Notes under the pieces: generated by a model
Told to the model about the DNA's origin: nothing
The model's input: the letters and a program-made list of their open reading frames with translations, nothing else
Databases searched by the model: none
Made by a program: the position numbers and the translations under genes
In this document: one piece after another, positions 17,330-17,647 of the stretch
Layout of the letters: the number at the start of each line of letters is the position of its first letter
How positions within the stretch are numbered: the first letter of the stretch is position 1
From: Escherichia phage EP75
Sequence record: MG748547
Direction: 5' to 3' (one strand)
Length of the DNA: 64,000 nt

Positions 17330-17647
17330 ATGAATATGAGCAACAAACCGACTTATGTTGATGTAATGCGCGTTTTGGCCCAATACGCGTGTGACAATCT
17401 AAACATGGAAACTTGGCGCGACGGCGACCATAAAGAAAAGTTCGATAATATCGACGACAACATTGATGCGTTGGCTCCTCTTCGGGCCAAGAGCGATCTC
17501 GGTGGTGATGATCTTGACATGATTGAACTCATCATGGAAGTTGAAGAACAATATGATGTTGAAATCAGCGATGAATGGGTAGGCAAACATGGTGATGACC
17601 CCACGCTCGGCGCATTGGCTGAATTGGTAGTTGCCCTCAGCAAGTAA
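17330..17647 (+). CDS. acyl-carrier-protein-like protein with Asp in place of the phosphopantetheine serine
   Basis: [27 protein letters not shown] aligns with ACP core [27 protein letters not shown] but has DDL where ACP has DSL; alternative ATG at 17336. Confidence 0.55.
   Translation: [105 protein letters not shown]

Follow-up and report, generated by a model that had tools for sequence, protein, structure and literature searches.

A gene for a small acyl carrier protein (ACP)-like protein, in which the Ser that bears the phosphopantetheine group in canonical ACPs is replaced by Asp, was identified in a 64,000-nucleotide stretch of DNA from Escherichia phage EP75 (sequence record MG748547; this whole stretch is hereafter called the window). 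Alignment of its relatives indicates that an acidic residue at this site is a fixed trait of the family, neither a chance substitution nor a one-off. We consider it highly probable that the protein is not a carrier and works by binding. More tentatively, and with rather less than even confidence, we propose that it is a decoy for a host ACP-binding protein, acting at a site where ACP is recognized independently of its cofactor.

The window is part of a Kuttervirus (Ackermannviridae) genome, and in DNA matches the region considered here is 96-98% identical to Salmonella phages bering, ECML-4 and Vi01. In Kuttervirus records the open reading frame (ORF) is usually labelled "acyl carrier protein" or "hypothetical protein". 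The ORF list of the window places it on the plus strand at 17330-17647, with 105 residues. Of the two in-frame ATG codons at its beginning, the one at 17336 is most likely the true start, because it has the better Shine-Dalgarno spacing, because homologous proteins begin with MS[SN]KPTY and because the annotation of phage bering (312 nucleotides) starts there. The residue at the modification site is accordingly numbered D61 in the 105-residue ORF and D59 in the 103-residue protein. Coordinates of the gene, its parts and its neighbours are collected in Table 1.

The ACP-like character of the product was apparent from profile, sequence and structure comparisons. The Pfam PP-binding profile (PF00550) scored 29.2 bits against a gathering cut-off of 20.8 (E 1.1e-6), and the phage 'acyl carrier protein' family PHROG 4154 was matched with an E value of 1.1e-54, residues 3-105 aligning with positions 1-108 of the 108 in the profile. 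When the protein was compared by phmmer with all PDB sequences, the 60 matches listed were exclusively ACP or carrier-protein chains. In the alignment with Bacillus subtilis ACP (E 3e-7), DLGGDDLD of the phage protein falls column for column on DLGADSLD, and a MAFFT alignment with E. coli AcpP gave the same register. An earlier inspection of the letters alone (the sequence-only reading) had singled out a core sequence, located at nucleotides 17495-17575, as matching the helix II region of ACPs; the above-threshold Pfam score and the agreement of the two registers bear this out. Of the checks that the reading had proposed, alignment to ACPs and structure prediction both returned the expected result. 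The alignments place Asp in the modification-site column. An AlphaFold2 model computed from 19 homologues has the compact helical fold of an ACP (mean predicted local distance difference test score, pLDDT, 81.8; predicted template modelling score, pTM, 0.76). Foldseek comparison of this model with the PDB returned only ACP and carrier-protein chains among the matches listed, the best with template modelling (TM) scores of 0.65-0.75 normalized to the target, and the model superposes on the BFVD model of the homologue from phage ViI with a TM score of 0.91.

The fate of the modification site was followed in 57 cluster representatives (clustered at 90% or 50% identity) that were gathered by two protein searches and one exhaustive profile search; the residue counts given below refer to this set. 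The column corresponding to Ser36 of E. coli AcpP holds Glu in 49 representatives, Asp in eight and Ser in none, so that the replacement of the invariant Ser of the DSL motif by Asp, as first read from the EP75 sequence, is one instance of a family-wide acidic site. At 15 genomic loci all four acidic codons (GAT, GAC, GAA and GAG) are in use at this position, and reversion to Ser would require at least two nucleotide substitutions. Since Asp and Glu interchange, all four codons occur and Ser is absent from the whole set, the comparison indicates that negative charge at the site is under selection. The gene as a whole is also well constrained: pairwise ratios of nonsynonymous to synonymous substitution rates (dN/dS) within allele groups lie between 0.03 and 0.15, and an alignment of 19 homologues has 46 invariant columns.

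Phosphopantetheinyl transferases act by esterifying the hydroxyl group of a Ser. Because the site is Asp or Glu throughout the family, its members cannot, to judge from their sequences, be modified at the canonical position and hence cannot serve there as carriers, which is what the sequence-only reading had concluded for the EP75 protein. No other conserved Ser was found in the homologue alignment except one directly after the initiator Met. A tblastn search with E. coli AcpS detected no AcpS-type transferase in any Ackermannviridae record, a search that did not extend to Sfp-type transferases. No lipid, polyketide, acyl or peptide-synthesis genes are annotated in the roughly 59 kb surrounding the gene in the near-identical phage bering, where the annotation lists replication, nucleotide-metabolism, lysis and baseplate genes. 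Two marks of a functional AcpP-type carrier, namely the Ser of the D-S-L motif and a genomic link to a transferase or to acyl-ACP enzymes, are thus missing.

What the family has kept is the docking surface. In ACPs, helix II is an acidic "recognition helix" that docks on basic patches of partner proteins. The equivalents of AcpP D35, L37, E41, M44 and E47 are invariant in all 57 representatives, those of D38, I54 and D56 are retained in 56, and that of E49 in 52, while position 48 is Glu in 48 representatives and Asp in six. Other parts are peculiar to the family, among them a conserved N-terminal segment (MSxKPTYVEVMRxLAQYAxDNLN) and an expanded, variable loop between helices I and II. A further segment near helix IV, which we call the 'DDP' segment, has no counterpart in E. 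coli AcpP; its columns are conserved as W (52 of 57), G (54), D (56), D (55), P (56) and T (54). Helices II and IV run parallel in the ACP fold, and from this known topology the DDP loop and the Asp/Glu site should share one end of the bundle, where the loop would enlarge the cluster of carboxylates (D-[DE]-L-D plus D-D). The protein is strongly acidic overall, with an isoelectric point (pI) of 4.1 and a net charge of -16, compared with -15 on the 77 residues of E. coli AcpP.

These features suggest how a binding-only decoy might work. Carrier function has been permanently lost while the acidic docking face of helix II was kept, leaving a protein that most likely acts purely by binding. The product, probably made from the last gene of a transcription unit that includes the upstream vWA-domain gene, would fill a basic ACP-docking site of some host protein that recognizes ACP without its cofactor, in competition with the host's own abundant AcpP. 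The negative charge that the phosphodiester or a bound metal normally provides may come from the fixed carboxylate, the adjacent Asp residues and the DDP loop together. We infer that a partner is bound through helix II and that it is a host protein, and the naming of any particular host protein has the same standing. A host target is favoured because the surface that is copied is the docking surface of a host hub protein, because relatives occur in unrelated phages with no vWA gene nearby, because the gene sits among replication and host-takeover genes, and because, apart from the docking helix, its sequence changes fast, as that of host-interaction genes commonly does; the ACP-like proteins are 24-61% identical where the neighbouring vWA proteins are 51-96% identical.

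The literature offers MukB and PlsB as the best candidates for predicted targets. The ATPase of MukB is stimulated equally by apo- and holo-AcpP (PMC8602292), and apo-ACP inhibits the glycerol-3-phosphate acyltransferase PlsB more strongly than holo-ACP does (PMC3896788), whereas SpoT requires holo-ACP (PMC3896788). The decoy proposal is plausible in that it fits the invariant docking residues, the host-takeover context and the at least two ACP interactions of E. coli that are reported to be cofactor-independent.

Several observations weigh against the decoy proposal. The helix II region is the sole part of the protein with clear sequence similarity to canonical ACPs; the NCBIfam equivalog model for AcpP (TIGR00517) scores 34.2 bits, about half of its cut-off of 70.45, and none of the other NCBIfam ACP models reaches its own; and two of the five AlphaFold2 models are of low confidence. 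Host AcpP is among the most abundant proteins of E. coli, and a competitor would need high expression or a higher affinity. Interactions that require the cofactor, such as that with SpoT, could not be mimicked by a carboxylate. Finally, the strict adjacency to a gene for a vWA protein with an invariant metal-ion-dependent adhesion site (MIDAS), which holds even in the most divergent loci, fits a phage-internal partner equally well.

A functional link between the two neighbours is possible, and in its most specific form the ACP-like protein would be a small subunit or ligand of the 738-residue vWA protein, its Asp or Glu completing the coordination of the MIDAS metal as the acidic residues of integrin ligands do. 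The MIDAS site of vWA and integrin I domains needs an acidic ligand residue, and selection for 'Asp or Glu' at the ACP site is the pattern expected of a metal-coordinating ligand. The metal site itself is probably in working order, as the MIDAS residues D24, S26, S28, T97 and D127 are invariant in 48 diverse homologues with identities down to 34%. The ACP-like gene is found directly after the vWA gene, at a distance of 38-52 nucleotides, in each of the Ackermannviridae-type loci examined, and the two are likely to be co-transcribed. This adjacency persists where the ACP-like proteins are only 24-33% identical, and it extends to an uncalled copy in Erwinia phage Bue1. Synteny covers all of this region in the family, however, which makes adjacency by itself weak evidence, and outside Ackermannviridae-type synteny the two genes were not found together. 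Profile hidden Markov model (HMM) searches found no ACP-like ORF within 4-5 kb of the genes for full-length vWA homologues in Slopekvirus KP15, Bacillus phage AR9, Rhizobium phage TM30, Shewanella phage Thanatos-1 or an Aeromonas contig, the last of which encodes a vWA homologue that is 65% identical. By tblastn the vWA protein is present in 503 phage records against 271 for the ACP-like protein, and three Asp/Glu ACP-like proteins from other contigs (P0032, P0034 and P0048) have no vWA gene nearby. Nor is there a sign of co-variation, since the identity of the Kuttervirus ACP-like allele falls from about 97% to 60% next to vWA proteins that remain 96% identical. On balance we regard a vWA ligand as unlikely, though it is the main rival of the decoy proposal. 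The AlphaFold2 model of the vWA protein (pLDDT 86.5) has PDB analogues over approximately its first 400 residues only, which comprise a vWA domain and a beta-sandwich (4fx5, ArnB and ITIH1; Sec23-24-like). The idea that an ACP-binding enzyme domain is hidden in its 550 unannotated residues was dropped, as the matches listed include no acyltransferase, synthase or SMC joint. Homologues of full length, at 33-96% identity, are known from Ackermannviridae, Slopekvirus, RB43-like relatives of T4, Thanatos-1, AR9 and Rhizobium phages, and the labels 'minor tail protein' and 'magnesium chelatase' that some records give them look unfounded.

The sequence-only reading had offered, besides a decoy, a generic acidic nucleic-acid mimic, which, like Ocr, ArdA, Arn or T7 gp5.9, would block a DNA-binding host defence or repair enzyme. 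A small, very acidic protein that is encoded by a phage amid replication and host-takeover genes, and whose sequence, one conserved helix apart, diverges fast, would suit such a role, but this suggestion gained no specific support. The charge is not distinctive, being nearly that of AcpP; the part that is conserved is an ACP docking helix and not a DNA-like array of charges; no DNA-mimic or anti-defence family was matched in Pfam, PHROGs or PADLOC, the last giving no match for the neighbouring proteins either; and the DNA of the phage is already protected by thymidine hypermodification. We consider this reading improbable. A carrier with a non-canonical attachment, involving a different residue or cofactor and serving some pathway of the phage such as DNA hypermodification, would agree with the 'acyl carrier protein' label in many GenBank records and in PHROG 4154, and with the presence a few kb upstream of a kinase for 5-hydroxymethyldeoxyuridine (5-hmdU) in DNA. 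Against it stand the lack of any conserved Ser beyond the one after the initiator Met, the lack of an AcpS-type transferase in the tblastn search of Ackermannviridae records, the lack of annotated acyl, polyketide or peptide-synthesis genes nearby, and published biochemistry: the 5-(2-aminoethoxy)methyldeoxyuridine (5-NeOmdU) of phage ViI has been reconstituted from gp67, gp160, gp226, gp243 and gp247 (PMC8989533), that is, without the ACP-like protein. A role in thymidine hypermodification, which the kinase 6.4 kb upstream had brought to mind, was ruled out on the same ground, and non-canonical attachment in general seems very improbable. Still harder to credit is a decaying, functionless remnant of a captured host acpP. 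The residue that defines ACP function has indeed been lost, but none of the Ackermannviridae-type genomes examined lacks the gene, the acidic residue in its place is conserved, as are the 46 invariant columns, and the measured purifying selection contradicts a decaying pseudogene.

If the decoy proposal is carried to its boldest form, the protein would be the founding member of a class of phage 'charge-mimic' ACP decoys, which out-compete AcpP on an ACP-dependent host machine and disable that machine during infection. We think this rather doubtful. T7 gp5.9 also inhibits MukBEF. MukBEF would be the most attractive candidate for such a machine, because it requires AcpP as a cofactor-independent subunit and because T7 targets it too, a suggestion that is no less speculative. 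In that case the related Asp/Glu ACP-like proteins of other phage contigs and of metagenome protein sets would form a wider, hitherto unrecognized group of ACP-surface mimics.

The ACP-like gene is the last of a run on the plus strand that begins with the 5-hmdU DNA kinase and continues with the genes for a DUF8224 protein, a DUF3268 zinc-finger protein, a gp49/RyR-domain protein, a small ORF and the vWA protein. RegA, MazG, the 5-hmdU kinase and an RNA-polymerase ADP-ribosylase are among the replication and host-takeover genes of the surroundings; the ADP-ribosylase lies downstream of the ACP-like gene, together with small genes that have no assigned role. The spacer between the vWA and ACP-like genes measured 38-52 nucleotides in 12 of 12 loci. 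In the window it is 44 nucleotides long, and a sequence scan found no sigma-70-like promoter in it. The hairpin that it contains could be a leaky terminator or an RNA-stability element. Directly after the stop codon lies a strong intrinsic-terminator-like hairpin with an 11-bp stem, at which, to judge from its sequence, transcription of the unit ends; the annotations of phages Mooltan and Matapan show a terminator at the corresponding position. As the spacer is free of promoter-like sites and a terminator follows the ACP-like gene, the latter is probably co-transcribed with the vWA gene.

Further upstream lie the kinase and DUF8224 genes, which form part of the thymidine-hypermodification region. 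The scans that were run matched the 673-residue DUF8224 protein to no Pfam-A or NCBIfam family. The identity of the gp49/RyR gene and of the small ORF after it is 97-100% in some Kuttervirus genomes and only 40-46% in others, although in the latter the vWA gene that flanks them is 96-97% identical, a pattern that suggests allele exchange in this stretch.

Table 1. Positions in the window of the ACP-like gene, of its parts and of neighbouring features
Feature	Position	Strand	Remarks
5-hmdU DNA kinase	9651-10898	+	PF18723, E 2e-83; 6.4 kb upstream of the ACP-like gene
DUF8224 protein, 673 residues	11011-13032	+	Label from precomputed matches of homologues
gp49/RyR-domain protein	13884-14756	+	Mosaic
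Small ORF after the gp49/RyR gene	14906-15082	+	Mosaic
vWA-domain protein, 738 residues, upstream neighbour	15075..17291	+	Pfam VWA; MIDAS D24-x-S26-x-S28, T97, D127
GC-only hairpin GGCGGG-GCCAA-CCCGCC in the vWA/ACP-like spacer	17300..17316	.	Perfect six pairs, weak T tract after it; terminator-like in scan
Shine-Dalgarno-like AGGAA	17325..17329	+	7 nucleotides before ATG 17336; abuts ATG 17330; read from the sequence
ACP-like coding sequence	17336..17647	+	103 residues plus stop (most likely start); in-frame alternative ATG 17330 adds two residues
Helix II 'recognition helix' and following loop	17495..17575	+	PDB phmmer alignments
Asp codon GAT in the column of E. coli AcpP Ser36	17510..17512	+	PDB phmmer, MAFFT and family alignments
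Family-specific segment: conserved Trp and Gly (helix III region), three-residue 'DDP' insertion before helix IV	17576..17605	+	Column counts
Intrinsic-terminator-like hairpin, 11-bp stem AATCCCCAATA...TATTGGGGATT plus T run	17655..17688	+	Directly after the stop codon; sequence and scan

The searches showed the ACP-like family to be restricted to phages. Nearly all of the 271 records found by tblastn come from phages of Salmonella, Klebsiella, Escherichia, Dickeya, Shigella, Serratia and Enterobacter, enterobacterial hosts that are typical of Ackermannviridae, and divergent members (31-51% identity) occur with unchanged gene order in metagenomic contigs of 12-138 kb. In the genomes of 185,579 bacterial and archaeal species, a degenerate DNA pattern for D-L-G-G-D-[DE]-L-D-x-I-E gave six matches, all by chance in unrelated ORFs, although so narrow a pattern leaves room for divergent cellular relatives. 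Within Kuttervirus there are two alleles, an Asp type with 89-99% identity to the window and a Glu type at about 60% (L008, 6001-6324); most of the differences between them fall in the loop that joins helices I and II, and the flanking genes are 94-99% identical. In Erwinia phage vB_EamM-Bue1 (MG973030.1; L183, 7313-7612), the 440-bp 'gap' after the vWA gene contains an uncalled ORF for a very divergent ACP-like protein (HMM E 1e-11), which has Glu at the Ser position (AMDELDYIEF) and lacks the DDP loop. A copy 99% identical to the Kuttervirus gene lies at 462-776 of OR844942.1 ('Enterococcus phage Efm 3-10', 111 kb), and further records labelled Enterococcus or Pseudomonas are found among the DNA matches; such records are probably mislabelled or contaminated assemblies and not evidence of host jumps.

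Ser-less ACP-like proteins were also sought beyond the family. In an IMG/VR scan, which was pattern-based and includes a few spurious hits among those without Ser, 52 of the 65 ACP-motif matches had Ser, and the 12 with Asp or Glu comprised ten Ackermannviridae loci, one chance match in a non-ACP ORF and one different ACP-like ORF. This last (L065, 5902-6195; IMG/VR contig 3300032105_000035, a 35-kb viral contig) encodes an ACP-like protein of 97 residues with an independent Ser-to-Asp change (DLGADDLDMIE); by eye its flanking ORFs are methyltransferase-like, radical-SAM-like (CNLYCQMC motif) and glycosyltransferase-like, a context unlike that of the Ackermannviridae gene. A metagenome scan with a generic ACP pattern gave 79 matches with Ser and none with Asp or Glu among those listed, all of them canonical ACPs. 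Among the best 150 profile matches in a library of 1.8 billion proteins, 29 occurrences of the ACP motif have Asp or Glu at the site. The shorter proteins P0032, P0034 and P0048 mentioned above share a "G..DDP/DDK" loop with the family; the contigs that encode them are phage-like but unrelated, and small genes, an HNH endonuclease and ThyX are found nearby. Among the other cases (P0106, P0122, P0160, P0168 and others), some look otherwise canonical, as in DLGADELDIIELVMSIEEEF...KTVGD, and come from short metagenome contigs. In P0040 two ACP-like units stand in tandem, with Pro and Thr at the two sites. As read from these matches, ACP-like proteins without the Ser may be commoner than has been recognized, also beyond this one protein family.

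A literature search retrieved no functional study of a phage ACP without the Ser and no mention of the missing Ser in this ACP-like protein; the only traces were one detection by virion proteomics (a single peptide retrieval) and a computational prediction that an unspecified phage ACP binds FabZ. To call the gene "acyl carrier protein / auxiliary metabolic gene", as GenBank and PHROG do, is misleading as to function: many phage records class it as an auxiliary metabolic gene, whereas the present data rule out a carrier role. Should the decoy proposal prove true, it would represent a new mode of host interference, in which a phage copies a hub protein of lipid synthesis, MukBEF chromosome organization, Fe-S assembly and stress signalling, and the protein would become a tool for separating cofactor-dependent from cofactor-independent functions of ACP. 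Should it be a vWA ligand, it would provide the first handle on a large vWA/MIDAS protein found in many big phages (Ackermannviridae, several T4-like genera and AR9). Under either reading the fixed Asp/Glu lends itself to clean mutation, and the question can be tested directly.

With bacterial AcpP (PF00550, TIGR00517) the phage protein has in common the small helical fold, a similar net charge and the acidic helix II motif DLG-x-D-x-LD..E..M..EEEF..EI.D. It differs in having Asp or Glu for the Ser, in reaching half of the AcpP equivalog cut-off, in being about 25 residues longer (a longer N-terminal half, the expanded loop between helices I and II and the DDP insertion) and in a genomic context in which no AcpS-type transferase or acyl-ACP enzyme was found. 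The canonical phage ACPs (PHROG 5934; phiCbK-like phages, cyanophages and other large phages) are PP-binding proteins of similar size and fold that keep the DSL Ser where the Ackermannviridae protein has Asp or Glu. The activity proposed here is the same as in the cofactor-independent acts of E. coli ACP, PlsB inhibition and MukB activation, except that those are performed by the host's own ACP. Ocr, Arn and T7 gp5.9 are likewise small, highly acidic phage proteins that occupy the binding site of a host protein; they have no sequence or fold relationship to the ACP-like protein, whose conserved surface copies ACP and not DNA.

A known protein of this kind is the mitochondrial ACP (mACP) of Apicomplexa. 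In Plasmodium the Ser of mACP is replaced by Phe, and the protein is a cofactor-independent binding subunit of Isd11-Nfs1 in which the replacement residue forms part of the interface (PMC8547962); the authors of that study found no Ser-less mACP homologues outside Apicomplexa and Vitrella (PMC8547962). Both the mACP and the phage protein have the ACP fold, have lost the modification Ser and are retained under selection, and in each the residue that replaced the Ser appears to matter in its own right. The lineages are unrelated, one being a phage and the other a eukaryotic organelle, and the replacement in mACP is hydrophobic (Phe, or Cys or Gly in Toxoplasma) and fits a hydrophobic, co-evolved pocket in an LYR protein, whereas that in the phage protein is strictly acidic. 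What is new is thus the occurrence in phages of an ACP-fold protein that lacks the Ser and carries in its place a strictly acidic, possibly charge-mimicking, residue.

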